Virus record (IMG/VR): IMGVR_UViG_3300005917_000001
From: an uncultured virus (IMG/VR IMGVR_UViG_3300005917_000001)
Taxonomy: Duplodnaviria; Heunggongvirae; Uroviricota; Caudoviricetes
Strand: one strand, 5' to 3'
DNA length: 20,000 nt
Shown: positions 1,082-14,906 of the stretch, piece by piece
Layout of the letters: every line of letters starts with the position of its first letter
Position numbering within the stretch: position 1 is the stretch's first letter
The notes under the pieces: model-generated
The model's input: the letters and a program-made list of their open reading frames with translations, nothing else
Told to the model about the DNA's origin: nothing
The model's database searches: none
Program-made: the position numbers and the translations under genes

Positions 1082-1169
1082 GTTATTAGTTATCTGTTAT
1101 TAGTTATTAGTTTTTGCCCTTCATTCATCATTCGATGTTCGATGTTCGATGTTCAATGTTCGATATTCG
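1082..1169. repeat. Heptamer tandem repeats (GTTATTA-type, then TTCGATG x~5.5)
   Basis: gttatta gttatct gttatta gttatta at 1082-1109; ttcgatg x3, ttcaatg, ttcgata, ttcg at 1131-1169. Confidence 0.85.
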
Positions 1170-1202
1170 TCTTCTTAGAGTTCGTCTTTTTAAGCTGCTC
1201 AT

Positions 1203-1249
1203 AAAAAAAGCGGCTGTACGGAGAAGCATGGCCCCATACAGCCGCTTTT
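1203..1249 (-). terminator. Intrinsic terminator-like hairpin upstream of terS
   Basis: 13-bp perfect inverted repeat AAAAGCGGCTGTA (1206-1218) / TACAGCCGCTTTT (1237-1249), ending in U7 on the minus strand. Confidence 0.7.
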
Positions 1250-1307
1250 AATATCGTTATCCGCCCCCGGGTGATCAACCCGGCACGGTATTATTCAATT
1301 AACATTT

Positions 1308-1348
1308 AAACTCAAAACTCAAAACTCAAAACTCAAAACTCAAAACTG
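1308..1348. repeat. Heptamer tandem repeat (AAAACTC) x~6
   Basis: aaactc, aaaactc x4, aaaactg. Confidence 0.92.
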
Positions 1349-1353
1349 TTTTT

Positions 1354-1362
1354 ATTATAGCA
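1354..1362 (-). promoter_or_regulatory. Extended -10 promoter, candidate late promoter
   Basis: TGcTATAAT on the minus strand, facing terS/terL; no consensus -35. Confidence 0.5.
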
Positions 1363-1504
1363 CGGGTTTTTGAAACGATAGGCCTACAGGTGGGCAAAAA
1401 ACCGGCTGGAGGTATTCCCGGCCATTCTCGGGAATTATCGTGGAAGAAAAAAATGTAGATTTTTAAAAAAAAGACTTGACAAGGGTAAAAAAGAGGGAGT
1501 GATG

Positions 1505-1545
1505 CCTGCCCGCCATCGGCTTCGCCTTCAGGCGAGGCGGGCGGG
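1505..1545. repeat. GC-rich REP-like branched palindrome
   Basis: CCTGCCCGCC ... GGCGGGCGGG outer arms with inner TCGCC-ttca-GGCGA hairpin. Confidence 0.5.
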
Positions 1546-1612
1546 ATTGTCGATTATTGATTGATGATTGAAGGGCCAAGGGCGCCAAGTTGCGGGTTAC
1601 GGATTGCGGGTT

Positions 1613-1633
1613 GGTGGATTAGCCTTGTTATAC
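1613..1633 (-). other. Truncated attC (left part only), end of array 1
   Basis: Stop of ORF 1628-1852 lies in GTATAAC, followed by AAGGCTAATCCACC, then heptamer repeats (AACCCGC/AATCCGT, 1589-1612); no matching right arm. Confidence 0.5.
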
Positions 1634-1852
1634 CCTGAGGACGGACGGGGGCATATGAGCGTAGACAATATTCCATGTTGGATGCAATGTGAATATACCT
1701 AAATTTCCAGCAAATCGAACTCGCAAATATTGTCCCCTTGACCCGACAATCCAACCTCTTGATGGCTCAACGTGTTCACATTTCTGAAATGTGATTTCCA
1801 TTCCCCGCTTTGCTGGAACCCCATACGTATCTCTAATATATTTCATGCTCAT
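1628..1852 (-). CDS. Cassette C: small phage-type hypothetical protein
   Basis: 74 aa; YIRDTYGVPAKRG...G.IVGSRGQYLRVRF...HPTWNIVY recalls a recurrent small phage protein; starts 9 nt after an attC, TAA inside the next R'' box. Confidence 0.8.
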   Translation of the reverse strand: MSMKYIRDTYGVPAKRGMEITFQKCEHVEPSRGWIVGSRGQYLRVRFAGNLGIFTLHPTWNIVYAHMPPSVLRV

Positions 1853-1860
1853 CTTTTCAC

Positions 1861-1920
1861 CTATAACGTGGAATTAAGCGGAGCAGTCTTTTTCGCTTCC
1901 GCTTGAATGAGTGGTTATGA
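1861..1920 (-). other. attC-like recombination site (60 bp)
   Basis: Minus strand TCATAAC-CACTCATTCAAGCGGAAGCGAAAAAGACTGCTCCGCTTAATTCCAC-GTTATAG: R''/R' boxes; TCATTCAAGC/GCTTAATTC arms closely resemble short aadA-type attC sites. Confidence 0.88.
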
Positions 1921-2272
1921 GCTTACATACCTGCCGCCCAACAAAATCACTTGAAAAATATCGTATGTATTTTCCTTCTTTTTCAGCGTATTTTATTTCT
2001 TTGGACGTGCTTTCTCCGATATATCCATCCCAATCGACGACAAATATCTCATCGGCAAGATCGATTTTCCTTAAATGCAATTCGTCCATAGCTTCGGCGC
2101 AGCCTTCATGTTCTGCAAGATGATCTGAAGGACAATCTGGATACCATTGAGGCAATAAACTCAACCCCATTGTAATCGCCAACTCATTGCGCTCAATCAG
2201 CCATTCCGCAACTGCCATAATTTCAACAAATTTCGATGATCCGCACATGACTACTATCTTCGGTTTTTCCAT
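1874..2272 (-). CDS. Cassette B: DUF4406/nucleoside deoxyribosyltransferase-like protein
   Basis: Likely start ATG 2272 (MEKPKIVVMCGSSKF; GAGGA just after the attC), 132 aa; motif LHLRKIDLADEIFVV..DGYIGEST..EI.YA...GK. Confidence 0.7.
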   Translation of the reverse strand: MEKPKIVVMCGSSKFVEIMAVAEWLIERNELAITMGLSLLPQWYPDCPSDHLAEHEGCAEAMDELHLRKIDLADEIFVVDWDGYIGESTSKEIKYAEKEGKYIRYFSSDFVGRQVCKLITTHSSGSEKDCSA

Positions 2273-2280
2273 TTCTTTCC

Positions 2281-2343
2281 TCATAACGTGGAAATGAGCA
2301 GACGGCGTGTTTTTAGCCGGTATGCTCGATTTCTTGGTTATCG
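2281..2343 (-). other. attC-like recombination site (63 bp)
   Basis: Minus strand CGATAAC-CAAGAAATCGAGCATACCGGCTAAAAACACGCCGTCTGCTCATTTCCAC-GTTATGA; GAAATCGAGCA/TGCTCATTTC arms with a single extra base. Confidence 0.85.
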
Positions 2344-2588
2344 TCAATGCGCCCATATATGACACTGTGACCCTTTCCAGATAAGGCAATTTGATCAATA
2401 TCTGCATGACTATCAAAATAGTCTGCAACCCATTCAGGTGCGCCACTATCATTGTCTATTGGTTGTGGGCCTTGCGCATGAAACGTTCCTTTTATTTGTA
2501 ATTCACCTATTGCATGGGCACCGAAAACTTTCCGGCCATTACTCCCTTTCATTGCAAAAGTGAAAGATCCTCCATCTACGAATGGCAT
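2313..2588 (-). CDS. Cassette A: hypothetical protein
   Basis: Likely start ATG 2588 (MPFVDGG) after AAGGAGG; 91 aa; stops inside the attC. Confidence 0.75.
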   Translation of the reverse strand: MPFVDGGSFTFAMKGSNGRKVFGAHAIGELQIKGTFHAQGPQPIDNDSGAPEWVADYFDSHADIDQIALSGKGHSVIYGRIDDNQEIEHTG

Positions 2589-2594
2589 AAAAGC

Positions 2595-2663
2595 CTCCTT
2601 TCTAAGACGATAACAAGTGATTATATAGATCCGCATAACTTCGGTTTTTGGAGGTTATGCGGA
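2595..2663 (-). repeat. Array leader copy 1: half-attC-like hairpin plus RBS
   Basis: 32 bp (2609-2640) identical to 7611-7642; stem TCCGCATAAC/GTTATGCGGA; R' GTTATCG at 2614-2608. Confidence 0.85.
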
Positions 2664-2699
2664 AAAGCAAGTTTCGTGCCAGCGATTTTCTCTGCGCCC

Positions 2700-2996
2700 T
2701 CACTCCAACCCCGGAATAATAATCGGCACATCCACGGACGGATAGTCCGGCCGCACCGTAAACGACTTTCCGGTATCCATATCAAGATAATACCGCCCAC
2801 TACCCTGGCGCCGGCTGTTATACAGCTTCCCGGTGTCCATATTCCAGATATTCGCCCCGCCGGAGCCATCCTCGTGGACCTCGTAAGTTCGCATCTGCCC
2901 CGAATCATCCATAATCGTCACCCGGTACCCCCAGGCCGTCACCCAAACTCCCAAAACCAAAACCACCACCGCTAATCCCATTATTACCTTTTTCAT
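2700..2996 (-). CDS. Small exported protein
   Basis: 98 aa; MKK + hydrophobic stretch + AWG signal-peptide-like N-terminus; repeated MDTGK motif; GGAGG RBS; ATGA overlap with the upstream gene. Confidence 0.75.
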   Translation of the reverse strand: MKKVIMGLAVVVLVLGVWVTAWGYRVTIMDDSGQMRTYEVHEDGSGGANIWNMDTGKLYNSRRQGSGRYYLDMDTGKSFTVRPDYPSVDVPIIIPGLE

Positions 2997-3361
2997 ACTG
3001 CACCTCCCGCGTTACGTTGAAAACCTGTCATTTCGTGATACTCTGCCATTAGAGTGTTCATGTTAGAATCAATATCAATGCAATAACCGATGGCCTCAAG
3101 GTTGAAATACATTTCCCCACAATGTTCACACATCCAGTGGGATGCCAATGGAATCTCGCCGTCCTCTCCCCAGATACTATACTCAACCTCATCTCGTGGT
3201 GGCCTCATTCGTGCAAATTCAATACACTCCGACCCGATGTCGATAAGCACCCCACAACTCCCGCAGCGTTTTCGCCTGGAGGTATCCAATTTTTGGAAAT
3301 CATCAGGAGAAAACCAGCAAGGACCGTCTCCCTCCCATTCATTGCACGTACAGGATAACAT
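2993..3361 (-). CDS. Cys-rich, probably Zn-binding phage protein
   Basis: 122 aa; CxC, CGSC and CEHC motifs. Confidence 0.75.
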   Translation of the reverse strand: MLSCTCNEWEGDGPCWFSPDDFQKLDTSRRKRCGSCGVLIDIGSECIEFARMRPPRDEVEYSIWGEDGEIPLASHWMCEHCGEMYFNLEAIGYCIDIDSNMNTLMAEYHEMTGFQRNAGGAV

Positions 3362-3377
3362 AATATCTCACCCCTCC

Positions 3378-3447
3378 CCTGCGTCCTCTGCGCCTCTGTG
3401 TGAGACGTTTTTTAAAAATCTCTCACAGAGATCACAGAGTCACAGAG
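3378..3447. repeat. Inverted 8-9 bp repeat element (CTCTGYG / CACAGAG)
   Basis: cctctgcgcctctgtgtgaga, AT-rich spacer, tctcacagag atcacagag tcacagag. Confidence 0.65.
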
Positions 3448-3471
3448 AAAAAACTAATCAATGTGCGCCGT

Positions 3472-3738
3472 TTACCCCTTCCTGTGCACCTCATACAATT
3501 CCAAGCTCGCCTTTATACTCTCCAGCTCTATGGAGATGGCCCATGCCAGGGCCTCAATACACGAATACAACCCGCCTGTCAGCCGCATATTGTCAATCAG
3601 CCGATCCCCGGGCTCCTCAAAGTCACCTCCGATCTGCAGCGCATGGAGTACCATCCCGAGACCGGTCAACCCCTGGGCCGCCCGGTCGATATGCCCCAAA
3701 TACATATTAACAGCCGGAAAAGATTCAGGTTCCGTCAT
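3472..3738 (-). CDS. Hypothetical protein coupled to the antirepressor gene
   Basis: 88 aa; ATGA overlap with the BRO gene stop. Confidence 0.65.
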   Translation of the reverse strand: MTEPESFPAVNMYLGHIDRAAQGLTGLGMVLHALQIGGDFEEPGDRLIDNMRLTGGLYSCIEALAWAISIELESIKASLELYEVHRKG

Positions 3739-4559
3739 GATGCACCGCCTTCCCAGGCAACCGCATAATACCGCCCGGTCCGATTCAGACAGACCCCGTG
3801 TGCCACACGAATACAGGTGATACCCCCGTTCTCATCAGGTACCGACTGGGATGTAAAAACCATCCGTGCAGCGATTTCCCGCAAGGACCTGTAAAACGTA
3901 TTGCGGCCCAGGGGCACACCCTGCGCATCTTTGCACCACCCCTGATACGCCTCATGAAGTTCCATGGGGCGACACGAGGCATCCGCGTGCATCAAACAGC
4001 AGCTTTCTAAGAAATCCCGAACCGTTTCATCCTTCATCCGGAGGACCCGGGATACAGGCCTGGCTCCGAAACTCGTAGCAGGTCCTTTCCCGGTCAGATA
4101 ATCGCCGTCATAGCCGGGCCTGCCATATACCGCCGTCAACCCCCGCACCGCCGCATTCACCGAGGCCATTGTCTCGTTCAACTGGGATATCGCATCCACA
4201 GCCGCCTGATCCGCCTCCTCATCCGCACCCGGTATGGCATACTGCCCCGTTTTGCGGAGGGAGGGAAGCACATCATGGGTCACCCACCGCCGAAAAGGTT
4301 TAGCCGCCTCCTTGTTCGATCGGACAATCAGGGTGTAAAGACCGGATTCGGAAATGGTCGCCATGTCCTGTGCGCCTCCAAGGGTATCAATATTTTTGAT
4401 ACCCTTTTCATCATCATCCAGCTTTTCAAGTGCCATACTTACATTTTCAAGCTCCAAAATAACACAAACATCCTTTCCAACAAACCAGGGCTCCCCACTT
4501 TCATCTCGGATCACCCGCACATCCTGCTCCTCATACTCAAATGGAATTACATTAGTCAT
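3735..4559 (-). CDS. BRO-N domain antirepressor-like protein with C-terminal D5/P4-primase-type winged helix
   Basis: VRVI...GEPWFVGKDVC.IL...ISESGLYTLIVRSNK..AKPFRRWVTHDVLPSLRKTG.Y is BRO-N; C-terminal V.DFLESCC...ELHEAYQGWC...PLGRNTFYRSL; AAGGAG RBS. Confidence 0.9.
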   Translation of the reverse strand: MTNVIPFEYEEQDVRVIRDESGEPWFVGKDVCVILELENVSMALEKLDDDEKGIKNIDTLGGAQDMATISESGLYTLIVRSNKEAAKPFRRWVTHDVLPSLRKTGQYAIPGADEEADQAAVDAISQLNETMASVNAAVRGLTAVYGRPGYDGDYLTGKGPATSFGARPVSRVLRMKDETVRDFLESCCLMHADASCRPMELHEAYQGWCKDAQGVPLGRNTFYRSLREIAARMVFTSQSVPDENGGITCIRVAHGVCLNRTGRYYAVAWEGGAS

Positions 4560-4600
4560 GATTCATTCTCCTTCCTTTAGAAGTTTGACGTTTAGGGCAC

Positions 4601-4680
4601 AAAAAAAAGCGCCCGAGTGCTGTCATGGCTCTAAAGGAGACCACCCTCGGCGTGTTGCCACGCTTCGGACACTCGGGCGC
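4601..4680 (-). ncRNA. Candidate C4/CI-like antisense RNA in the antirepressor leader
   Basis: 11-bp stem GCGCCCGAGTG/CACTCGGGCGC followed by U8, inner hairpin at 4649-4664, and a segment (4620-4638) complementary to leader boxes at 4752-4768 and 4573-4590. Confidence 0.65.
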
Positions 4681-4773
4681 AAAGAATAAGCCCTAATAAA
4701 AACACCCCCTTCCGCGTCACAAAAATGGCGCGGCAAGGCCGGGGACAGCCTCTTTAGAGTTATGACAGTTATT

Positions 4774-4802
4774 TCCATAACAAATCCTTTATCCCTTGTC
4801 AA
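4774..4802 (-). promoter_or_regulatory. Sigma70-type promoter for the antisense RNA/antirepressor unit
   Basis: TTGACA-17 nt-TATGGA; the -10 is imperfect. Confidence 0.5.
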
Positions 4803-4823
4803 GATGTTTTTTTTATTTTTTAT

Positions 4824-4853
4824 TTGACATTGAAGCACTTTATCTGCTACATT
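4824..4853 (+). promoter_or_regulatory. Divergent sigma70-type promoter for ORF 4886-5164
   Basis: TTGACA-18 nt-TACATT with TG extension; AGGAGG RBS at 4873-4878. Confidence 0.55.
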
Positions 4854-4885
4854 GCAGCATCTGCAATAATACAGGAGGATCATAA

Positions 4886-5164
4886 ATGGTGAATATCTCT
4901 CGTAAGATGAAAGAATGGTATCGCGGAACACCCATCCCATACAGCATCGATAACCTCACGGACCTCCAGAGAGACAAGTTCGGTGAGCCACAAACACCGC
5001 TTCTTCCCGACAGATTCAATCCGCCGGTTATCGCTAAAGTTTTCAATGGCATAGGACGCTTCTGCCGCCGCTACTGGAAATGGATTATTGGAATACTTTT
5101 TCCAGCAACTCTGGCCATGATAGGCCTGCATCTCGCATCTTTAGTATCAACTTTATCCATGTAA
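4886..5164 (+). CDS. Moron-like small membrane protein
   Basis: 92 aa; own promoter and strong RBS; C-terminal hydrophobic segment WKWIIGILFPATLAMIGLHLASLV. Confidence 0.7.
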   Translation: MVNISRKMKEWYRGTPIPYSIDNLTDLQRDKFGEPQTPLLPDRFNPPVIAKVFNGIGRFCRRYWKWIIGILFPATLAMIGLHLASLVSTLSM

Positions 5165-5234
5165 CGGCGGCAAAAGTCATCCCCACGATAAAGGCATACT
5201 TCCAACTGTTCACAAACTTATCGATTTCATTCAT
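5085..5234 (-). CDS. Small single-TM protein (49 aa, not in ORF track)
   Basis: MNEIDKFVNSWKYAFIVGMTFAAVTWIKLILKMRDAGLSWPELLEKVFQ; AAGGA RBS. Confidence 0.45.
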   Translation of the reverse strand: MNEIDKFVNSWKYAFIVGMTFAAVTWIKLILKMRDAGLSWPELLEKVFQ

Positions 5235-5419
5235 GATTATTTCCTTTCATATCCTTCATTTTCTCACCCACCAATAGGTCTATCTCCATCGATACCGCAT
5301 AAATCGCCCTAACCAGGTCCTTATCCCCGCCCTCCTTAACCCGCTCCTCAGCCATCCACACAATCGTATCCGCCATCGTCTACCCCATTTCCATTCGATG
5401 TTGGATGTTCATCTTTCCC

Positions 5420-6235
5420 TCATTCCGGCACCTCATCCCAGACCTTCCCATCCAACGCGGGCATTTTAACCAACTTCCCGTCAACATCCATCTGCTTCAG
5501 GAAGAACGGGACCCGGTGCCCATACGCCTTACACTGCTCCCTTATAAATCGAAACCACTCCCAATCCGTTCGCCTTCGCTTCGGGCCGCTCTCACACCCC
5601 GCTATCACCCAGTCCAATACCGGCGCATCAATCGTGTGAGCGTTGCATGCGTCCCACTCTTCCTTATACCCGCCGAGATAAGACTCCAGATTCACCGGTC
5701 CCAGTAACGGCTCAAGAGACACAAACCGCCGCGCAGCCGGTATCTGCAGTAGTACGGGTATCCGTCGATCTGCCTCCTCCTGATTTTCGGCAGTAACCCC
5801 AACCCAGACGTTTTTCCTTTCATGCCCTTCAGGGTAGCGCGTACCGAGGAAGTCCAACGCCCTCTCCGGCCGCTTCGTCAAAACCAGATATGTGTGGCCG
5901 GGTCTGTCGTTTGCCGGTTGGATATTCCCCTCGGCGTCATAGAATTCACCCATAGCCTGCCACACATTAAGTATCCACGCTTCATCCACCTCGGGGTGAA
6001 AAAGATCCCCCATAGAGCAGACAAACACCCGCCGCGGCTTCTTCCACTTCAACGGTTGGTTTATCCGATCGGGATGGAAAGTCACCTTGAAAGGATCGTC
6101 CGCCGGGTACCCGAACCGCCCCTTCAACCGCTGCGCCATCCGCCGGGCATAACAGTTCCGGCACCCCTCCGACACCGGAGAACACCCGGTAACCGGATTC
6201 CAAACCTCATCCGCCCACTCAATCTTAGTACTCAC
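5420..6235 (-). CDS. Phage Gp37/Gp68 (DUF5131) family protein
   Basis: TKIEW...WNPVTGCSPVSEGCRNCYA, VFVCSMGDLFH, LTKRPER, RFVSLEPLLG, LDWVIAGCESG, FFLKQ; GTG start after AAGGAG. Confidence 0.93.
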   Translation of the reverse strand: MSTKIEWADEVWNPVTGCSPVSEGCRNCYARRMAQRLKGRFGYPADDPFKVTFHPDRINQPLKWKKPRRVFVCSMGDLFHPEVDEAWILNVWQAMGEFYDAEGNIQPANDRPGHTYLVLTKRPERALDFLGTRYPEGHERKNVWVGVTAENQEEADRRIPVLLQIPAARRFVSLEPLLGPVNLESYLGGYKEEWDACNAHTIDAPVLDWVIAGCESGPKRRRTDWEWFRFIREQCKAYGHRVPFFLKQMDVDGKLVKMPALDGKVWDEVPE

Positions 6236-6248
6236 TGTGTTTCTCCTT

Positions 6249-6290
6249 CGCCCAGATCAGCCGCTCGTCCGCTGGAACGGCTTGTTATAT
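6249..6290 (-). other. Degenerate attC ending array 2 (R' lacks TT)
   Basis: ATATAAC-AAGCCGTTCCAGCGGACGAGCGGCTGATCTGGGC-G|AAGGAG; the expected GTT is replaced by the RBS of the next gene. Confidence 0.65.
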
Positions 6291-6620
6291 TTTGCTGCTT
6301 ATCTCTGATAAAATTTCTCGGATGTCGAGTAATATTTGTACTGTTAAATTACTTGAGTGAACACCGCCATCTTGATACGAAGCGTGTAAATCTCGCAATA
6401 TATCTTTTCTATCACGCATTTTATTAGAACTTTTTGTATTATATTTTTCGCGCATTACAGTTAATGGGTTTTTGGGTCGTTTTGTATAACAGTGCGACAT
6501 ATCACTTCCAGCACCATCTTCTCCATCATTTTCTAAATTATATCCGTGCTTAGTCTTAGAAGATCCGCCTCTGGCTGGGTCTCTGTCACAACCCCTGCTT
6601 GTTCTATGTTCTCTTGTCAT
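6285..6620 (-). CDS. Cassette G: hypothetical protein
   Basis: 111 aa; AAGGAG RBS after the attC; TAA inside ATATAAC. Confidence 0.6.
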   Translation of the reverse strand: MTREHRTSRGCDRDPARGGSSKTKHGYNLENDGEDGAGSDMSHCYTKRPKNPLTVMREKYNTKSSNKMRDRKDILRDLHASYQDGGVHSSNLTVQILLDIREILSEISSKI

Positions 6621-6641
6621 TTTGCTCTCCTTTCTTTTAAA

Positions 6642-6701
6642 ATCTAACGTGCAGGTCAGCCGTGGAACGAAGTGGAATCGGCTGAATCAGCCTCGTTATA
6701 C
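6642..6701 (-). other. attC-like recombination site (60 bp)
   Basis: GTATAAC-GAGGCTGATTCAGCCGATTCCACTTCGTTCCACGGCTGACCTGCAC-GTTAGAT; TCAGCCG/CGGCTGA stem. Confidence 0.8.
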
Positions 6702-6934
6702 ACATCATTTAAGATAAAATCGGCTTTCGCGTACAGCTTCCGAACCCTTAGCAGTTGACGCCTGAACGCTGAAACCGGTTTTTTGTAGCTCCGGTCAATT
6801 TTTTCCTCAAAAGCCAATATTTTTTTATTTAGCTTTCCCATGTCCTGGATTATTTTATGATAATCTCCAAGCCAATCCAAATATTCGTAGGTGCTGGATT
6901 GACCATTTATTTGGATTTTACATCCTCTGCACAT
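6656..6934 (-). CDS. Cassette F: hypothetical helical protein
   Basis: 92 aa; starts 14 nt after an attC (GGGGA RBS); stops inside the next attC. Confidence 0.65.
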   Translation of the reverse strand: MCRGCKIQINGQSSTYEYLDWLGDYHKIIQDMGKLNKKILAFEEKIDRSYKKPVSAFRRQLLRVRKLYAKADFILNDVYNEADSADSTSFHG

Positions 6935-6947
6935 AGTAGTCCCCAGC

Positions 6948-7012
6948 GTATAACGTTGAGTTAAGAGGTGCGGCGGTCCTTTGCCGCAACCTTCTTAAAC
7001 GATTTGTTATCT
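6948..7012 (-). other. attC-like recombination site (65 bp)
   Basis: AGATAAC-AAATCGTTTAAGAAGGTTGCGGCAAAGGACCGCCGCACCTCTTAACTCAAC-GTTATAC; long stem with single-base bulges on the left arm. Confidence 0.88.
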
Positions 7013-7279
7013 TTGTTGTAATCCTAATGCCTCAATTTCATTAATCGTAAGCTTTGGGTAAACTGTAACGTTCCCGCAATTGGTTTTTGTTAAATCCACA
7101 TCGATCATTCTGTTTTGACTTTCGCAAATAGTCAAACCTTTCCATCCAGGGGGGGGTGGGAAACACTTTTCAAGCCTCATCGCCCTGGATCTTCGACTGC
7201 AAAGGCGCCATTCTTCGTAGGAACCGTCAACTTTTATTAGACATTCAATAATTGTAATGCTTTTTGAGGTGTCAAACAT
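7007..7279 (-). CDS. Cassette E: hypothetical protein
   Basis: 90 aa; GAGGA RBS; TAA inside R''. Confidence 0.7.
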   Translation of the reverse strand: MFDTSKSITIIECLIKVDGSYEEWRLCSRRSRAMRLEKCFPPPPGWKGLTICESQNRMIDVDLTKTNCGNVTVYPKLTINEIEALGLQQR

Positions 7280-7292
7280 GAATTTCTTCCTC

Positions 7293-7349
7293 GCATAACG
7301 GTTTAATCAGCGGCCGCGTTTAGCGGTCGGCTGAAGCGGCTGGTTAGCT
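7293..7349 (-). other. attC-like recombination site (57 bp)
   Basis: AGCTAAC-CAGCCGCTTCAGCCGACCGCTAAACGCGGCCGCTGATTAAACC-GTTATGC. Confidence 0.85.
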
Positions 7350-7589
7350 GAACTTTTCGCAATGCTGAGCGGTTAAACACAATAATAGTTGTTCATTGTT
7401 CAGTGTTGAGAGTAGCTTTTTAATATCTCGCAACCGGTAATCTGTTAGCCATTTCTCTCGTTCTTGCCAATTTAGATGCTCTATCGGCATGAGGTATGCT
7501 TCTAATGCTGTGCCTCGTGTTCCCACCTGTATTTCATTAAGGCCAGCCGTAAAACTCTCATAAACAACGTCTTCGATTAACTTTCTCAT
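7344..7589 (-). CDS. Cassette D: hypothetical protein
   Basis: 81 aa; AAGGAG RBS in the leader; TAA inside R''. Confidence 0.7.
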   Translation of the reverse strand: MRKLIEDVVYESFTAGLNEIQVGTRGTALEAYLMPIEHLNWQEREKWLTDYRLRDIKKLLSTLNNEQLLLCLTAQHCEKFS

Positions 7590-7595
7590 GTAACA

Positions 7596-7665
7596 CTCCT
7601 TTTCTAAGATGATAACAAGTGATTATATAGATCCGCATAACTCCACAAAACCGGAGTTATGCGGA
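7596..7665 (-). repeat. Array leader copy 2: half-attC-like hairpin plus RBS
   Basis: 13-bp perfect stem 7632-7644/7653-7665; R' GTTATCA at 7616-7610; direct repeat of 2595-2663. Confidence 0.85.
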
Positions 7666-7669
7666 CAAT

Positions 7670-9181
7670 TTAAACTTCCACCCCCATATCCCGATACACC
7701 CGCACCCGGCCCCGGTAACTCCCCTGCAGGTGAGTCGGTCGATCCCGATAATCAAAAATCTTCGGGGGATCATCCCCGGGTTTTGACCATAACAACTTAC
7801 CGACGGCCTGGCATAGATTCTCGGGATGCCGTAGGGGGGAGGCCACAAACAGGTGGGTGATCCGGTCCACATTCAACAGATTAAAACTCTTGGCGGTGAC
7901 ACAGATAATCTGAGTTTTTCCTTTATTAAACATCTCAAAAACAACCGGCAATTGATCTTTTTTAGTCTTTCCGGATATTAAGATACAGTCGCGGTAATTA
8001 GCTTTAAAGGTTTTTTGCAGGGCCTCTAAGTGAACTAATCGCTCTACCAGGACCACGGTCCGGGCGCCTCCTTTTATCGCGGTCTCGGCCAGCACGTCGG
8101 TGACAATCCGCTCGTTTCGCTCCGGATCCACGGCCAGGGCGCCCACCATTTTTTTGTAATCTTCACTGAAGTTGTAATCAAACCCGGTGTCCTGGCCGTG
8201 GAAAACCGGTCGGATCGCGGTCGATTCCCGGTAAACCCTATCTATGTCGATTTCGGCCAGATGCGGCCCTATATAGGCATGTATAAGGTTAGTTAGACCG
8301 TCATCCCGCTTCCGTCTGATCGCCAGACCCAGCATATATGCCGAGGGGATATACCGGACAAATTTAAAAAAAACATTCAGCCCGACCCGGTCGCACTGAT
8401 CCACTATTAAAAACCCGACCGACTCGGCCACATCGTCGATCATCTTATGAAGTGCGCGGCTGATGGCTATAGTAAAAGGCCTCCCTTGATCCTGCCTACC
8501 ATCTCCGATCAATCCTATATCCGTCCGGGAAAGCCCCAGAAATCGACCGGCCGCTTCCTGCCATTGATACGCCTGCGATTTAGTCTGCACAATCACCATC
8601 ACAGGTACCTGTCGCTTTGCCGCCAAATATAACGCAGCTACTTTTTTCCCCGACCCTATTGAACCACAGATAGTTCCAAATCTTCTACTATTCACAACCG
8701 CAACCACTTCACCCTGATACGGATACAAATCCCCTTTAAACTCAAAGTAAACCGTGCCTGATCGCTTAGTGTAATCATCGTATTCGCCTTTGCGCCTATG
8801 GGCCTGGAGGATACGTATGAGGCGGCTGGCAAACCCCCGGGTTGTAAACAGGTGGCCGTCCCCCTCCCAATAACAGGTCAACTCCCTCGTGATCTCAGGC
8901 GTAAGGGTCCCTGCTCGCTTAGCCCGGATCCAGAGCGGATTTTTAAACGTCAATTCCCGCGCCACTTCATCAATCACACCTTCAGGCAGATCCTCGAGGG
9001 CCACCCGCAGTTCCCGCTCCACCCGAATCTTAACAGACCCCCCGGTTTGGATAACGTCTTGCCCTGTTGTTACACTATCCCCCTCCACTGTTACACCAAC
9101 AGCCTCTTCCGGCAAAACCTCCACCTTCGCCTCATCCTCATCTAAGGCACTGTATTTCTTTAACATTTCATCTAATTCCAT
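7670..9181 (-). CDS. SF2 (DEAD/DEAH-like) helicase homolog with degenerate catalytic motifs
   Basis: LYPYQ Q-motif, GSGKK, LIVDQCD, LGLAIR..RDDG, QAVGKLLW, IFDYRD. Start uncertain (9181 or 9223). Confidence 0.82.
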   Translation of the reverse strand: MELDEMLKKYSALDEDEAKVEVLPEEAVGVTVEGDSVTTGQDVIQTGGSVKIRVERELRVALEDLPEGVIDEVARELTFKNPLWIRAKRAGTLTPEITRELTCYWEGDGHLFTTRGFASRLIRILQAHRRKGEYDDYTKRSGTVYFEFKGDLYPYQGEVVAVVNSRRFGTICGSIGSGKKVAALYLAAKRQVPVMVIVQTKSQAYQWQEAAGRFLGLSRTDIGLIGDGRQDQGRPFTIAISRALHKMIDDVAESVGFLIVDQCDRVGLNVFFKFVRYIPSAYMLGLAIRRKRDDGLTNLIHAYIGPHLAEIDIDRVYRESTAIRPVFHGQDTGFDYNFSEDYKKMVGALAVDPERNERIVTDVLAETAIKGGARTVVLVERLVHLEALQKTFKANYRDCILISGKTKKDQLPVVFEMFNKGKTQIICVTAKSFNLLNVDRITHLFVASPLRHPENLCQAVGKLLWSKPGDDPPKIFDYRDRPTHLQGSYRGRVRVYRDMGVEV

Positions 9182-9201
9182 AATGATAATCCTACTGCTG
9201 C

Positions 9202-9600
9202 TGTCACACCCGTTTTCAGACAATGTGACACTAAAAAACCATTTAACTCATTAATATTCTTATATTTCTATCGTTTTCCATGCCCCACTGTCACGTCACA
9301 TTCGCTTTTTACAAGATACTTATACTTAGCTATAATTTTATTTACATTTTTTCTTTTTCCCCAAAATTCCATTTTTTAAAAAAAAATTTCATATAGTATC
9401 TCTTCCCCTAATATGGTGGTACAGTGTGACACCGTACCCTATATATATAATATAACTTATTATTATTATTATTATTATTATTAAGGGGAGGTGGTACAAC
9501 TGTGTCACAAACCCCGTCACAAACCGTCACACTGTCACACTTTCCCGTAGCCCTATTTCCAAGATCCCGATCTATTAAAGCTATAATATTTAAAATCGAT
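9202..9600. other. Candidate replication origin: AT-rich region with GTCAC(A) iterons and (TTA)9
   Basis: About 9 GTCAC/GTGAC copies in both orientations (9203, 9225, 9290, 9295, 9426, four in 9504-9539); (TTA)9 at 9457-9483; downstream of the primase gene. Confidence 0.55.
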
Positions 9601-10295
9601 ATCAACACCTTATGGGGAAAAGTAGACTTAAACCTTTCAAAAATCCCACGGCCTCCATAATAGTACCGGGGGCTGGGACTCCGATCCCCCGGTTTCGCGT
9701 TTTCCGTTTTTTCCCCACCCACACGCACGCACTCGCGATCAACACACAACACACAACGCCGACCCAGATCCGCCACCCCCAGGCCCCGCAGCAGCCCGCA
9801 AAAACCCGCTATCTTTTCGCCGCCTGACGGTAAAACAATATCAGTCAAAATCCAATCAAAAACAAAAAAGCACATAGAAAGCCTATAACTATCTGATTCA
9901 CTTAAACAATGTCCTATATCCCAATCCCCCAACTTTTCCGAATTAGTTGGGGAGTTATCAACTGGGAGCAGGCCCCACTCCACGCCCTCCAGGAGCCCTT
10001 AGTGTGGCCAACCTGCCGACCATCGAACCCGGAAGACCCACCATCGTCACCCCCGTTTATCACCCTAAATCACCCCAAAAACCGGAAAACGCCTCAAAAA
10101 AACCCGATCGCCCCCACCCGTTCCATCTTTTTAACCCACTTCCCCTTCACCAACACCCTACACGCCTCACTTGTTAAATATGCCGTAGATAACCCCAGAC
10201 CTATTTCTTTTTAATTGGTGGCTATTTTTTGTGATCTCTCCCTGATGTTTTCAAAACCCTTTTCAATAAAGAGGGCTACGGGAAAACAAAAAAAA

Positions 10296-13160
10296 TTACA
10301 ACCCAATTATGCCCCATGGGACCAACACCCCCCGGAGAGGTGAGCCGCCCAGTCGCAACTGTTTAGCCTTGGCCCCGGCAATCCTCAATAGCATATCTCT
10401 AATGTTGAGCCCTTGCCATTGGGTCCGCGCCAACAACGCCTTTACGACTGTATCAGGGTGTAGGAATAGGCCTTTGTCGCCGTCTTTAACGGCCTTCACA
10501 CCGTTTGCTTCCAGGACTTTCTTCGACTCCTCGGTCATCTGCTCCTTACTTACGAGCTGGGACACAGTCCGAGTTACGTAGAGCGTTTTGGATGATTCGT
10601 AGCCATCTGACCTCAACTCACCGTCCACCTCCTCCGGTAACCGCACCTGGGCCATCATAATATCCTCTACCAACTTCGCCTCATCCTCCAGCGTCCCACC
10701 TTCGAACCGCTCCCGCCATTCCGTTAAGTAGTCAGCCAACAGCCTCGTTATTTGCTCCCCTGGTTGATCAAACGATACTGCAGCCATGCTGAACGCGACA
10801 GATAAGGACTCCACAAACCTTGGATCATTATCCCCGATCTTACCTATATTAGCCACCAGCCCCCTTGCCTGAAACGAGGCCCAGAGGACATATACAACAA
10901 TCCTGATCCGGATCTTTTCAGCCTCCGAACTACTCGGAAACTTCGGTTGACAAGTAGATAATTTTTTCGTTTCGATGGCCAGGTATCTACTGTTTTCCGC
11001 AGCGCGATACAATCCACGTTCAACACTGCCCAAAAACACCATATGTTTCAATGTGGCCGCCACTGCTTTCTGCCCGGAAGACCCCTTTCGGGTAATGCCC
11101 CCACGGCCGGCAGATCTTATGAAGTAGATAATTTTATCTCTATGTTCGCTTTTCTCTATTTCGTCGATTGCCACCAGGACCGAGTCACATCCGATACTCT
11201 GTCGCAGGCCCGGCTCAGTCAATGTCTGCCCCTCACACGGCAGAGCCAGCCGTCCGCCCAATATAGTCATGAGTTCTTTCATGATTGATTTCCCGCTGCC
11301 TGACGTGCCGGTCAACCACAGGTGCGGCCGCCACGCCCATATAGACTGCACCCATTGGGCCAGATACCAGCCCACCAGCAGCCACACATCCAGCTTACCC
11401 GAGAGTCCCCACTGGAAAAATATATTCAATAGTTCTTCCAGGATACTGTTCGCCGCGGCCCTGTCCATTTTTTTTAATAACTTTAGCACCTCCGGCATAC
11501 TTACCCAATCATACCCTTGGCGCCAGTCTATCAGGCGCCCTTCGATCACAGGGTGTTCCCACTCCACCAGGTCTTTACCATCCCATAGCCATGCTTTACC
11601 GCCCACAACCAGCAAGATCCGATCGCCCAGGTTATGTAATCCCTGGCCTAAATATTCCGGATCCCATAACTGCCGCTTCCCGGCCTGCACGATAAGTCTT
11701 TTCTTGACGCCGGAAAACAACACCTGGCCGCCACTCATTGTCTGGGATGATCGCGCCACCTTAGCCGCTACCTCAATCCCCCCGATTTGCGTCAGTTTAT
11801 CTAAATTCAGATCTTTCAACGCCACCGCATACAACCGCTCATTAACCCGCGACCAGAACAGCAGCCGTTCGTCTTTCAGCTCGCCCAGGACCTCGAAACT
11901 CTTAAATTGATACGCCTCGGGCGGTGTGCGTGACATAGGCACCGAGCCCGCCTTTGTACCCCTATTTGGATCAGGTTCAGGAATCGGTTTAGTGATCTTT
12001 TCCGCCTCATCCTTCAACCGCGCCAGTTCCGCCTTCGGATCCTTAGCCGCCCGCAATATATCGTCAATGTCCACCTTAGTGCCGGGCTGATCAGGCTCGA
12101 TCCGGATTACCCGCACATCACCGCCCCCGGCCAATAACGTATTTGCGTACTGCCGCGTATATCGCGCCCCGGCACCCTCAGCCGACTTAGGTGGCGCAGG
12201 GTCATTATCGAATGCCAGGTACCATATCCGGCCTTTGGCAATAGCCTTCAGCCGCTCCAGGATCGCAGGCTCGTTGTATGACGCAATTGTGGCTATGGCG
12301 TGTTCATATCGTCCCAGGTCCATCACCGTGATCCGGTCGTTTTCTCCTTCCGTTATAATCACCGGCTCGTCCTGCTCTAATGCGTCCTGGCCATAACAGA
12401 GCCATCCCTCCGGGGCGCACTCCTTTTTTAACTGCCACTTTTTTTTCTTTTCAGGATCCTTTAACGAAAAAAACAGGATGTTGTCACCGCTGAAATGGGG
12501 ATATACTGTAATTCCCGCATTCACCACAGACCTGAACCCTGTGTTTTTTTGCTCTCTCACCAGGCCGACAGCTATCAATTCCGCGACGGTCACATCCTGC
12601 CCCCTGCAATGTCCAATCAGGCCGCCGCCGCCCAGGCCTATCTTAAAGCGCTCCACGATCTCCCTGCTATGCTGCCGCACGTCCGTCTGGTACGCCAGCG
12701 CCGTCCTCGACGCCATTATTCGACCGTGGTAGTACTCCGCCGCGATCCGCCGGACCTCCAGTGCCCGGTCCGGATCTATCTCCGGCTTTGTCCCCGCATC
12801 AGGCGGCTCAACCTCCCCCTTTTCTTTCTCTTTCGGCCGCTTAGCCGTGCCGCCGCCGGTCTCATTATCGAGGACGGGGATCCCCCGCTTGCCTGCTATG
12901 GATTTCGCCGCCTCCAGCGGGCGCTCCATGTTGCGGTATTGCTGCTCAAACTCAATCACATCTCCCTTGGCCGAGCAGCTGAAGCATTTAAAAAACTGAT
13001 CCTTTTCGTTAATCGTAAAGCAGTCGCTGTGACCGCAAAAAGGACAGGGGCTGACTCTATACGACCCGCTTCCGGCCCGCTTCGCGTCAACCCCTGTCTC
13101 TGAACTAATATATGTTACGATGTTCACCAGGTCTTTTACCCGGTCGAATAATCCAGCCAT
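10296..13160 (-). CDS. DNA primase with CHC2-type Zn finger and TOPRIM, fused to a P-loop ATPase/helicase domain
   Basis: 954 aa; CPFCGH...FKCFSC..KGDVIEF; IITEGENDRI and LAFDND; Walker A GTSGSGKS, Walker B VAIDEIE. Confidence 0.9.
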   Translation of the reverse strand: MAGLFDRVKDLVNIVTYISSETGVDAKRAGSGSYRVSPCPFCGHSDCFTINEKDQFFKCFSCSAKGDVIEFEQQYRNMERPLEAAKSIAGKRGIPVLDNETGGGTAKRPKEKEKGEVEPPDAGTKPEIDPDRALEVRRIAAEYYHGRIMASRTALAYQTDVRQHSREIVERFKIGLGGGGLIGHCRGQDVTVAELIAVGLVREQKNTGFRSVVNAGITVYPHFSGDNILFFSLKDPEKKKKWQLKKECAPEGWLCYGQDALEQDEPVIITEGENDRITVMDLGRYEHAIATIASYNEPAILERLKAIAKGRIWYLAFDNDPAPPKSAEGAGARYTRQYANTLLAGGGDVRVIRIEPDQPGTKVDIDDILRAAKDPKAELARLKDEAEKITKPIPEPDPNRGTKAGSVPMSRTPPEAYQFKSFEVLGELKDERLLFWSRVNERLYAVALKDLNLDKLTQIGGIEVAAKVARSSQTMSGGQVLFSGVKKRLIVQAGKRQLWDPEYLGQGLHNLGDRILLVVGGKAWLWDGKDLVEWEHPVIEGRLIDWRQGYDWVSMPEVLKLLKKMDRAAANSILEELLNIFFQWGLSGKLDVWLLVGWYLAQWVQSIWAWRPHLWLTGTSGSGKSIMKELMTILGGRLALPCEGQTLTEPGLRQSIGCDSVLVAIDEIEKSEHRDKIIYFIRSAGRGGITRKGSSGQKAVAATLKHMVFLGSVERGLYRAAENSRYLAIETKKLSTCQPKFPSSSEAEKIRIRIVVYVLWASFQARGLVANIGKIGDNDPRFVESLSVAFSMAAVSFDQPGEQITRLLADYLTEWRERFEGGTLEDEAKLVEDIMMAQVRLPEEVDGELRSDGYESSKTLYVTRTVSQLVSKEQMTEESKKVLEANGVKAVKDGDKGLFLHPDTVVKALLARTQWQGLNIRDMLLRIAGAKAKQLRLGGSPLRGVLVPWGIIGL

Positions 13161-13181: not shown

Positions 13182-13775
13182 CTATATTTCGTTTTCATAT
13201 ACATTCTTGATCTCTTCCGGCTGGATACACAGATACTCCAATGTCTGCGCTTGCGATGAATGATTAAAGCAGACCATGAGCCTGGGCAGGTCCACGCCAA
13301 ACGTAACCCTCTGATGATACCCCCAGGTCTTCCGCAGTGTATGGCTCCCATAATTACCCTTCAGGTTAATCTCTCTGCACCAGGCCTTAACCATGTTATT
13401 CACGGTACTCACAGTCAAAGGCCCCCGCTGCCCGACAAACAGGTGGCCCTCGTCCTCGCCCGCATGCCCCTCCAGAAGACCGTTGATCGCCATCACGGCC
13501 GCACCGTTAAGATTAAACCGTCTCTTTTTACGGGTCTTCTTTTCTTTGATCTCAATTTCGTCATTGGGAGACAAGTGTCGCACTTGCCCCACTCGCAGGC
13601 TCAGTATATCCGATGCCCGCAGGTTGGTATTGACGCCCACTGTAAAGATCGCCAGGTCTCGCGGTCGATCTGCCAACATTTTTTTAATCAGACGCACATC
13701 TTTTAAATTTTTAATCGGATCCACCTTAATCGAATCACCTTTTTTCGGGTGATTACCATTGCCACCTTTTGCCAT
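13182..13775 (-). CDS. Short tyrosine recombinase (catalytic domain only)
   Basis: Likely start ATG 13775, 197 aa; complete R(LRASD)-K(EKKT)-HxxR(HTLR)-H(NHS)-Y(TLEY) catalytic set. Confidence 0.92.
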   Translation of the reverse strand: MAKGGNGNHPKKGDSIKVDPIKNLKDVRLIKKMLADRPRDLAIFTVGVNTNLRASDILSLRVGQVRHLSPNDEIEIKEKKTRKKRRFNLNGAAVMAINGLLEGHAGEDEGHLFVGQRGPLTVSTVNNMVKAWCREINLKGNYGSHTLRKTWGYHQRVTFGVDLPRLMVCFNHSSQAQTLEYLCIQPEEIKNVYENEI

Positions 13776-13927
13776 GTTCCGCCACCCCCTTTTCTTCTCT
13801 ATTTTACCGATTTCACATAATGAGCACATCTTTTCCGGTTTCTTTTTTTACAATTCGGACACGCCCCGACCGGTACCCATTGCCCCCTGGCCTCACAAAA
13901 CACATATCCGCTCATCCCCACCCCTCC

Positions 13928-14419
13928 TTATCTTCCGTTCACCTCCGTTACGGGGATTGAATAGATCCGGATCCAGTCCCGAAACACATCATCCACCTGC
14001 GTCTGGAACGCCGGGTCCACATCCCGCTTGCCATCCTCTACCAGCCGCCCCTCCACCGGCCGCATCCAATACACGATATCATACCCCTCCATCCACCCCA
14101 AGGCCGCCGGCAGATAATCGTCAACCACTTCCTCTAACCCCGCCACATCGGCATACACCAGAGAATCCAGCACCGTCCGGTCACAAATGATATTATCCCC
14201 GGTAGCCGACGCCAGTAATTCCATCAGCATCTGTTTCAGCCAGATCCACCTCTGCGCCTCCTCGCTCGTATCCCGGTTAATGGGCCACGGACACTCCCGC
14301 GCAATACCGCTGATCAGCATCATACTGCCATCTCTACATTCATCCTTCGTCCGTTTAGCCATCTCCCTCGCAAACGTGCTCTTACCCGTCCCGTGCGTCC
14401 CCATAATGCCAAATTTCAT
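13928..14419 (-). CDS. P-loop nucleotide-kinase-like protein (AAA_28/NadR-Ttd14-like)
   Basis: GTHGTGKST, ICDRTVLDSLVYA, YDIVYW, EDGKRD. Confidence 0.82.
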   Translation of the reverse strand: MKFGIMGTHGTGKSTFAREMAKRTKDECRDGSMMLISGIARECPWPINRDTSEEAQRWIWLKQMLMELLASATGDNIICDRTVLDSLVYADVAGLEEVVDDYLPAALGWMEGYDIVYWMRPVEGRLVEDGKRDVDPAFQTQVDDVFRDWIRIYSIPVTEVNGR

Positions 14420-14435
14420 ATCTACTTATCTCCCT

Positions 14436-14906
14436 CTATATTGTTATGTGTACTTGGTCGTCTTCAATCACACATCGAGCGTATTGAAACTTCTTGATTG
14501 ACATAGGGTGGCCATGGGGGCTTATTAATGCTATCCCTGAAATCTCAACCTGAGAATCCCGGGAGAATTCATACGCGGGCAGGTCTTGAAATAGCTCATC
14601 ATATTTCATAAAGGTAATTCGTTCCCGTTCTTGCGTTTTCGATATCTCTTTTTCTTCTCGGATGATTTTTATGGCCGTTTTTTTTAGCACAAAAGGCCAC
14701 GCCCACCTACAAAACCTGGATAATGCGTCGCGATGAATGACTATGACAATAAATATAATTATCGTTGAACCCATACCCCAAACGCATAAAACTTCCGGAA
14801 AATTAAACATGCGTGCTATGACCGAGGTCAGCATAAAGACCAGCGCTAATGTCAAAATCCTCATTGCCCTATGCAACCTCTTCAGCGCTTTCATTAAGTC
14901 GTCCAC
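14436..14906 (-). CDS. Two-TM membrane protein
   Basis: Two hydrophobic segments; start probably GTG 14906 or ATG 14894 rather than 14978. Confidence 0.6.
   Translation of the reverse strand: MDDLMKALKRLHRAMRILTLALVFMLTSVIARMFNFPEVLCVWGMGSTIIIFIVIVIHRDALSRFCRWAWPFVLKKTAIKIIREEKEISKTQERERITFMKYDELFQDLPAYEFSRDSQVEISGIALISPHGHPMSIKKFQYARCVIEDDQVHITI

Follow-up and report, generated by a model that had tools for sequence, protein, structure and literature searches.

Integron cassettes were first reported in phages in 2023 and are still rare. The 20,000-nucleotide stretch of DNA analysed here, hereafter referred to as the window, comes from the uncultured virus IMGVR_UViG_3300005917_000001 (Caudoviricetes). 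It is phage DNA in which every gene lies on the minus strand, and it holds two blocks of small open reading frames (ORFs), each of which starts with the same unit of about 70 nucleotides (nt). The question raised by this locus is whether the head unit is a dedicated entry site for cassettes, used as a substitute for attI, or the duplicated remnant of an attC site. An earlier note on this DNA had offered both options. The duplicated attC remnant fits best, and the dedicated entry site is not borne out. With a probability of about one half, we regard the unit as a fossil of integron cassette boundaries that has been duplicated, and not as an entry site built for the purpose.

The unit is present twice on the minus strand, with its parts in the order first described, and it heads both arrays. 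Copy 1 (2594..2663) precedes array 2; its hairpin covers 2663-2630, and the ATG of cassette F is at 2588. Copy 2 (7596..7665) precedes array 1, with the hairpin at 7665-7632 and the ATG of cassette A at 7589. Copy 1 consists of TCCGCATAAC (2663-2654), 14 nt, GTTATGCGGA (2639-2630), TCTA, TATAAT (2625-2620), CACTT and GTTATCG (2614-2608), which are followed by TCTTAGAAAGGAGG, CTTTT and the ATG, the Shine-Dalgarno stretch being 2607-2594. In copy 2, the arms correspond to 7665-7656 and 7641-7632, TATAAT to 7627-7622 and GTTATCA to 7616-7610; TCTTAGAAAAGGAG, TGTTAC and the ATG make up the 3' end, with the Shine-Dalgarno stretch at 7609-7596. The consensus end is GTTATC, one variable base (G/A) and TCTTAGAAA(A)GGAG, with the ATG 5-6 nt further on; the variable base, which sits between GTTATC and TCTTAG, is an addition to the first reading. 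Copy 2 begins 7 nt past the stop codon of a helicase gene and copy 1 begins 35 nt past that of a conserved gene of 98 amino acids.

The earlier note had described direct repeats about 5.0 kb apart with 32 identical bp, and this is what a repeat search returned: a 42-nt direct repeat (2599-2640 and 7601-7642), identical at 41 of 42 positions, with a spacing of 5002 bp and a longest exact run of 32 nt (2609-2640). When the copies are aligned with their flanks, the similarity extends from the first base of the hairpin through GGAG, and the flanks outside the unit do not align. Outside the loops, the copies differ at about 2 positions in 56 nt. The window contains the hairpin pattern twice, and none of 200 shuffles contains it. 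Its arms, TCCGCATAAC and GTTATGCGGA, are perfect over 10 bp in each copy (palindromes at 2630..2663 and 7632..7665), with a 13-bp stem in copy 2. As DNA, the hairpins have stabilities of -9.3 to -14.6 kcal/mol, and none of 200 shuffles was as good for each of the four strands; as RNA, the values are -22.1 and -32.7 kcal/mol. Each 14-nt loop is the reverse complement of the other, a second addition to the first reading. Compared without gaps, they agree at 3 of 14 positions directly and at 9 of 14 as reverse complements, and the gapped comparison as reverse complements gives 12 matches, one mismatch, one internal gap and one end gap, a result reached by 16 of 20,000 composition-preserving shuffles. 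The ORFs behind the two copies, A and F, show a weak similarity (E 0.009, 10 of 35 residues identical), by which they are not convincingly related.

The blocks behind the units are built like integron arrays. All seven small ORFs are preceded by GTTA(T/G), and an imperfect palindrome, or what is left of one, lies 3' of each. Five of these sites are complete (56-65 nt), one is degenerate and one is truncated; all lie on the coding strand, 3' of ORFs A-D and F-H. The attC sites of integrons range from 55 to 141 nt in length. We aligned five elements of the window, attC_A among them, with three from contig L027, a close relative (n = 8). In this alignment, 94.4% of the cells of the R and L helices are paired, a result that none of 500 shuffles reached; four of nine pairs show compensatory changes, and AAC/GTT is invariant in all eight elements. 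From these eight elements alone, and without any known attC, a covariance model was built. Searched against plasmid R100, it found the aadA1 attC at its exact place with 35.3 bits (E 7e-7), the next match in the 50 kb scoring 15.5 bits. In phage TJE1 (49 kb), it found 244-293, 1016-1075 and 1462-1519 with 26.2, 28.9 and 14.2 bits, and one more 14.2-bit match elsewhere. In the parts of Qi et al. (PMC9892861) that bear on this phage, three attC sites are reported for TJE1, two of which were shown to recombine with attI1. The model is narrow: it covers one attC subtype, since in Shewanella phage M16-3 it found one site, and in Polaribacter phage P12002L none.

Within the window, the model found five sites at 41.6-64 bits and the degenerate sixth at 12.7 bits, all on the minus strand. 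In array 1, attC_A (7293..7349, 51 bits) lies 3' of ORF A (7589..7344) and attC_B (6948..7012, 64 bits) 3' of ORF B (7279..7007), while attC_C (6642..6701, 41.6 bits) overlaps the 3' end of ORF C (6934..6656). The R' box of attC_C, GTTAGAT, is identical to the R' of the aadA1 attC. The degenerate attC_D (6245..6290, 12.7 bits, E 0.38) lies 3' of ORF D (6620..6285), and its R' has decayed to GAAGGAG, which is the ribosome site of the following DUF5131 gene. In array 2, attC_F (2281..2343, 56.5 bits), with the R'' box CGATAAC, lies 3' of ORF F (2588..2313), and attC_G (1861..1920, 60.3 bits) overlaps the 3' end of ORF G (2272..1874). The last ORF, H (1852..1628), is followed by the left core GTATAAC of a truncated attC (1627..1633), for which no right half and no covariance-model hit were found.

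Neither the window nor the nearest record, G001 (32 kb), yielded an integron integrase; contigs L026 and L027 were searched only over the stretches compared. Because the model built here finds the R100 aadA1 attC and the TJE1 sites, and no integron integrase was seen, the window is to be described, on its sequence, as two attC-site clusters without an integron integrase (CALINs), of four and three cassettes. The covariation and the matches to R100 and TJE1 thus confirm that the arrays are genuine attC cassette arrays. As in the TJE1 CALIN (PMC9892861), co-oriented single-ORF cassettes are each followed by an attC of 56-66 nt, with no integron integrase. Unlike TJE1, this phage has a pair of arrays in its genome, both beginning with the same 70-nt composite, and it is known from metagenomes only. 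The sections of PMC9892861 on such arrays already describe CALINs in phages and the inverted GTT motifs found where they begin or end; the present phage adds to them and is distinguished by its repeated composite head.

The comparison with L027 shows the arrays in motion. Its helicase is 95% identical to that of the window and its DNA is 96% identical over 5.6 kb, and the homology breaks at 7673 and 2699. In L027, the first block of the window (7672-6230) is exchanged for 128 nt, and the second is exchanged for other genes and three attC sites. attC_B recurs there with 87% identity, 3' of an ORF unrelated to ORF B. Since the content of the arrays differs from that of a 95%-identical relative, cassettes have turned over inside one phage lineage. 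As a separate observation, contigs of run X24 match only attC_B (window 6950-7001) and carry other sequence on both sides; this look-alike is a third context for attC_B in the community. Its recurrence behind unrelated ORFs and in this third setting is indirect evidence that such sites may have been recombined by an integron integrase, which acts on attC as a folded bottom strand.

Given these arrays, the head unit can be compared with true attC sites part by part. The unit itself is not an attC by the measure of the model: on the opposite strand the unit reaches 11.0 and 10.8 bits, and on the coding strand its hairpin reaches 7.6 and 6.2 bits (10.8 and 7.6 bits for copy 1), against 41.6-64 bits for the true sites. 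It lacks an L helix, and its 34-nt hairpin is shorter than the attC length range given above. The arms of the hairpin nevertheless have the sequence of a genuine R''/R' box pair. GCATAAC is the left core of attC3 in TJE1, and GTTATGCGGA is the junction of attC2 and cassette 3 in that phage, identical to the hairpin arm at 10 of 10 nt; both words are thus common to the two phages. Both matches to the arm 10-mer in the 49 kb of TJE1, with up to one mismatch allowed, fall on attC junctions. In a joint alignment, the hairpins align as attC sites from which the interior is missing.

The 25 nt after the hairpin begin with TTATGCGGA and carry TATAAT where CTTAAT or CTTAAC stand in the attC sites, then a 5-nt spacer and a G at the end. 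By eye, they resemble both ends of a deleted cassette; the model gives this half-attC part 5.0 bits. The GTTATCG of copy 1 is complementary at 7 of 7 positions to the R'' of cassette F. When nine 5' junctions were compared with the R'' of their own cassette, four agreed at 7 of 7 positions (C, G, F and the L027 cassette 9654..9866), D and H at 6 of 7, A and B at 5 of 7, and the L027 cassette 9307..9650 at 4 of 7. That the unit is built of attC-type parts, as first proposed, is therefore upheld by the arms, which equal a real R''/R' pair, and by the 7/7 match of GTTATCG to cassette F.

A second palindrome made of R boxes only, AGGCATAAC-AA-GTTATGCCT, was found in TJE1 (L083, 304-323), in the 5' untranslated region (UTR) of a cassette, and is one of two such palindromes with arms of at least 7 nt in the 49 kb. 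Its loop has 2 nt, unlike the 14 nt seen here. It lies between attC1 and a methyltransferase ORF, the annotated start codon of which falls inside the right arm; an ATG with a good ribosome site is found 27 nt further on. TJE1 is also like the present phage in having, according to the portion of PMC9892861 on array borders, a hairpin with two inverted GTTRRRY motifs before its array; unlike the hairpins here, it has the opposite polarity (GTT...AAC). The TAATAAC heptads of the window (1082-1112) were considered as related boxes and set aside: relatives carry unrelated heptads there, and the likeness is taken as chance.

The earlier note had proposed to check whether the unit consistently heads cassette arrays elsewhere. 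Exact-pattern scans bore out no such occurrence, matching only near-identical copies of this phage; such scans demand exact matches, and diverged copies would be missed. Scans with a 31-mer and with the hairpin pattern gave matches only in four near-identical IMG/VR contigs. A 17-mer scan gave 20 loci, of which 7 come from those contigs and 13 lack the hairpin, and a 19-mer gave 6 loci in 185,579 species genomes, none with the hairpin. The unit is absent from the array of L027. In the four assemblies that contain both copies (G001 and three IMG/VR contigs), the orientation is the same, and contigs in four lake runs stop at the repeat (2611-2638 and 7613-7640). These contigs gave no joint from 2640 to 7640, although ending where they do they could not have revealed one. 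A weak joint 2966 -> 4805 (side 21) in the lake-run contigs was disregarded. No Rfam family accounts for the unit, the three hits elsewhere in the window being weak and attributable to chance, and a tRNA search of the DNA found none. In published full texts, GTTATGC together with the word integron occurs in primer lists only.

We infer the following order of decay and mode of duplication for the fossil. The first part of the unit would be an attC that lost its interior and kept an extended R box, so that R'' (TCCGCATAAC) and R' (GTTATGCGGA) form a hairpin of 10-13 bp. The second part, of 25 nt, would be a collapsed cassette, with the typical start TTATGCGGA followed by the right half of an attC (the L'-like TATAAT, a 5-nt spacer and G). 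The third part would be the junction G|TTATCG together with cassette F's 5' UTR and Shine-Dalgarno site. Ordinary recombination, with no integrase, could then have copied the whole block that starts at the hairpin and ends at the Shine-Dalgarno site, copy 2 being the secondary copy placed before the other array and fused at the ribosome site to the unrelated ORF A. The mirrored loops may have arisen by two independent collapses of one attC of about 60 nt, with the opposite half kept each time (the halves pair at 12 of 13 positions, with one bulge), or by a flip of the loop; both scenarios imply an extruded hairpin.

As for activities at present, we infer that the unit most likely has a passive role at most, in which it offers a hairpin, a site for the ribosome and a direct repeat. 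Weak terminator or insulator functions have been proposed for attC sites, and the hairpin, which may fold in DNA or RNA right behind the upstream phage gene, could act likewise. The Shine-Dalgarno site 5-6 nt before the ATG would drive translation of the first ORF, and the promoterless cassettes downstream would be transcribed by readthrough as part of the phage operon. As direct repeats, the two copies could in principle also recombine homologously and so delete the 5-kb interval between them. On this account, the front of an array can consist of decayed attC parts that mimic attI, and decay may often leave collapsed R-box palindromes such as those of this phage and TJE1. For annotators and integron finders, this means that a repeated head bearing GTT is not to be taken as an entry site without junction evidence.

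Several points weigh against the fossil. The arms and leader are nearly identical (about 2 of 56 positions differ) while the loops have changed, and this near-identity could mean purifying selection on a working site instead of a recent copy. The motif of IntI1 genome hotspots (GWT, with CRGM at +6 to +9), as given in the parts of 10.1101/2022.09.11.507474 that define it, is matched by the right arm, G|TTATGCGGA, so that use of the unit by a host integrase is possible. In both of the blocks in which L027 differs, the unit also lies precisely at the 5' boundary, 7 and 35 nt from the breaks, like a mobile end. The 'deleted cassette' parse depends on a resemblance seen by eye, with a half-attC score of 5.0 bits. 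Finally, the 7/7 match of GTTATCG has a chance of about 1 in 16 to 1 in 64, and copy 2 matches its own cassette at only 5 of 7 positions.

Among the alternatives, a selected regulatory cassette survives best, and we regard it as rather unlikely. In this reading, the unit resembles the PeSL elements of T4-type phages, which are composite terminator/promoter modules: transcription from upstream would terminate at the hairpin and restart from TATAAT, and the first ORF would be translated from the Shine-Dalgarno site, while the module would also be a point of homologous exchange by which the variable blocks downstream are reshuffled. The conserved span, from hairpin to Shine-Dalgarno site, is the exact extent of an expression signal, and a perfect TATAAT lies 4 nt past the stem. 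Both copies stand at break points of homology with the 95% relative, as do PeSLs in the portions of PMC4122927 that describe them, where short repeated modules of stem-loop and promoter-like sequence border variable blocks of small genes in close phages and may be substrates for homologous exchange. A conserved promoter-like site of the late region, TGCTATAAT (1354-1362), also lacks a -35 box, and the distant relative L022 has a different repeat at corresponding positions, behind the helicase and ahead of the last small gene. However, beside the perfect -10 the unit has no TG extension and no -35 (at most 2 of 6 positions, by eye), so that the promoter is only putative, and neither copy is among the 36 promoter-like or 8 terminator-like sites that a scan listed. 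TATAAT is not enriched in the window, with 11 found against 11.2 expected, and it is also explicable as a relic of the L' box. The stem is present, but its tail, UCUAUAUAAU, lacks the U-tract of an intrinsic terminator. A PeSL-like shuffling module would be expected in both phages, where exchanged blocks border on each other's homologues; here there are only two copies, made of integron att parts, and none in L027; exchange through the module is thus not seen.

Somewhat less likely again is the reading in which the unit is a double-stranded entry site, like attI or attG, for a host integron integrase, which would bind the inverted GTTATGC boxes and GTTATC and join cassettes at G|TT. The unit has the right place for this, heading both arrays in the orientation of the cassettes, and several boxes of the GTTAY type stand upstream of a GTT, as in the attI1 region read from R100. 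It shares with the attI sites of R100 and of M16-3 the position before the first cassette, the GTTAY-type boxes and an AAC...GTT palindrome (AAC-N10-GTT in the attI region of M16-3). M16-3 is like the present phage in that two arrays share one head: its integrase-less array is headed by a 140-nt, 87% identical copy of the true attI region of the same phage. Inverted GTTRRRY motifs at the boundaries of phage arrays are described in section 3.4 of Qi et al. (PMC9892861). Like attG, as characterised in the relevant part of 10.1101/2022.09.11.507474, the right arm carries GWT at the cleavage point, with CRGM at +6 to +9 (G|TTATGCGGA), in a double-stranded site without an L box; unlike at attG, there is here the motif match alone, with neither an integrase nor an insertion event seen at the unit.

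Against such an entry site, the copies still agree 20 nt past the G|TTATC at which crossover had been proposed, with identity ending at the Shine-Dalgarno site, and they have different bases just ahead of the next TT (TG vs GC). Since identity runs past the one and the bases before the other differ, neither GTTATC nor the next TT looks like a used crossover; in M16-3, by contrast, the identity stops at GTTA. Unlike attI1 and the attI of M16-3, the unit has no adjacent integrase gene and no sequence similarity to either site, and its own similarity does not end at G|TT. Together with the lack of an integron integrase in the window and in the 32-kb G001, the L027 array without the unit and the lack of any other occurrence in the collections scanned, this speaks against the dedicated entry site, or attI substitute, of the earlier note. 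In M16-3 itself, the shared heads lie at 14483-14622 and 38587-38726 of its record (L084), the integrase-less one being the copy of the attI region of the complete integron, and the cassettes of the integrase-less array are 97-100% identical copies of cassettes in the integron of the same phage.

The window does encode a tyrosine recombinase (13182..13829, minus strand), a core gene of this phage group. This protein of 215 amino acids, reduced to the catalytic domain, gave no hit to TIGR02249, for which an IntI1 control scored 508.6 bits, and BLASTP revealed no resemblance to IntI1; three relatives that have no arrays (L022, L025 and L031) conserve it at 75-77%. By these comparisons, it is not an integron integrase. 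Its gene sits in the replication module.

A related proposal, which we find doubtful and a little more so than the entry site of the attI type, is that palindromes made of R boxes only (GCATAAC...GTTATGC) are a working minimal integron site. Such a site would be a symmetric double-stranded target for the integrase of any infected host, and it would let phages without an integrase nucleate or refresh their arrays; the mirrored loops would then record the use of either strand. This minimal-site proposal stays open because the palindrome type occurs in two unrelated phage arrays, those of this phage and of TJE1, and because of the fit to GWT and CRGM. If it were true, the collapsed R-box palindromes would be a minimal recombination site. 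Very improbable, lastly, is a lox-like target of the 215-residue recombinase, with 13-bp inverted arms and an 8-bp asymmetric spacer in opposite orientations that would cause inversion, not excision, of the 5-kb segment: copy 2 matches the 13-8-13 layout perfectly, the two spacers face opposite ways and the recombinase gene lies 5.5 kb upstream, but the palindrome is absent from the L022, L025 and L031 loci (17.6, 17.4 and 8.8 kb) despite their conserved recombinase, the spacers (GGTTTTGT vs GGTTTTTG) and inner arm bases differ, and all four assemblies with both copies have one orientation.

The phage is an uncultivated salt-lake phage, known from metagenomes only. Among public runs, 24 DNA runs contain the stretch, all labelled salt lake metagenome, and no RNA run containing it is on record. 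The gene order is primase (13160..10296), superfamily 2 (SF2) helicase (9223..7670), small ORFs, the DUF5131 gene (6235..5420), the gene of a BRO-N/Ant protein (4559..3735), more small ORFs, a TerS-like gene and the start of TerL, all on the minus strand. Relatives were sought by protein, and the helicase as query gave L022, L023, L025 and L027-L035; TerS and the cassette proteins A and F gave no further relatives, and BLASTN of 1100-7700 against 50,697 phage records gave no match. Relatives with a helicase identity of 61% or less had no attC hits, except for one 23.8-bit site in L025. This lone, decayed attC-like site in a 52% relative (L071 1501-1560, the same as L025 35-94) has the R' box GGTAGAC and lies directly 3' of an ORF, the C-terminus of which resembles a DNA methyltransferase. 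Methyltransferases are among the phage cassettes in the parts of Qi et al. (PMC9892861) that deal with cassette content.

Other features of the window were noticed near the arrays. The repeat CTCTGTG / CACAGAG (3369-3452) forms a hairpin. In L022, a 61% relative (1936-1984, 9608-9656, 13832-13880 and 14275-14297), it is present three times and, in the form of inverted repeats, flanks a homologue of ORF G (43.5% identity); the ORF G family is thus seen in an attC cassette here and in another repeat frame in L022. Three tandem heptad arrays are present on the coding strand, TAATAAC (1082-1112), CATCGAA (1131-1169) and TGAGTTT (1308-1347). At similar positions between genes, relatives have heptads or octads of unrelated sequence: L027 has GGATACT, L025 about 20 copies of ATCYTGC, and L031 GGAATTGA.

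Before the TerS-like gene, the promoter-like site TGCTATAAT (1362-1354, minus strand) is an extended -10 with no -35; downstream of it lie heptad repeats and a strong intrinsic terminator (stem 1254-1201 and a T-run). The layout of 1195-1365 resembles the PR'-tR' leader of late-gene antitermination in lambda. This region is 84% conserved in L027, and since its read depth is several-fold above that of the flanks, it appears to be common to many members of the community. Before the Ant gene, a non-coding stretch of about 200 nt (4601-4815, minus strand) contains a TTGACA box (4802-4797), a structured region and a long-range stem, GCGCCCGAGTG...CACTCGGGCGC, followed by T8; it has no Rfam match and could be an attenuator or a small RNA. 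Finally, 1465-1490 and 4788-4813 form an inverted pair of 26 nt, 81% complementary and centred on the palindrome CTTG(A/T)CAAG. The pair may be a protein binding site; the window, L027 and L022 all conserve one of its copies at the right-hand end of the variable block.

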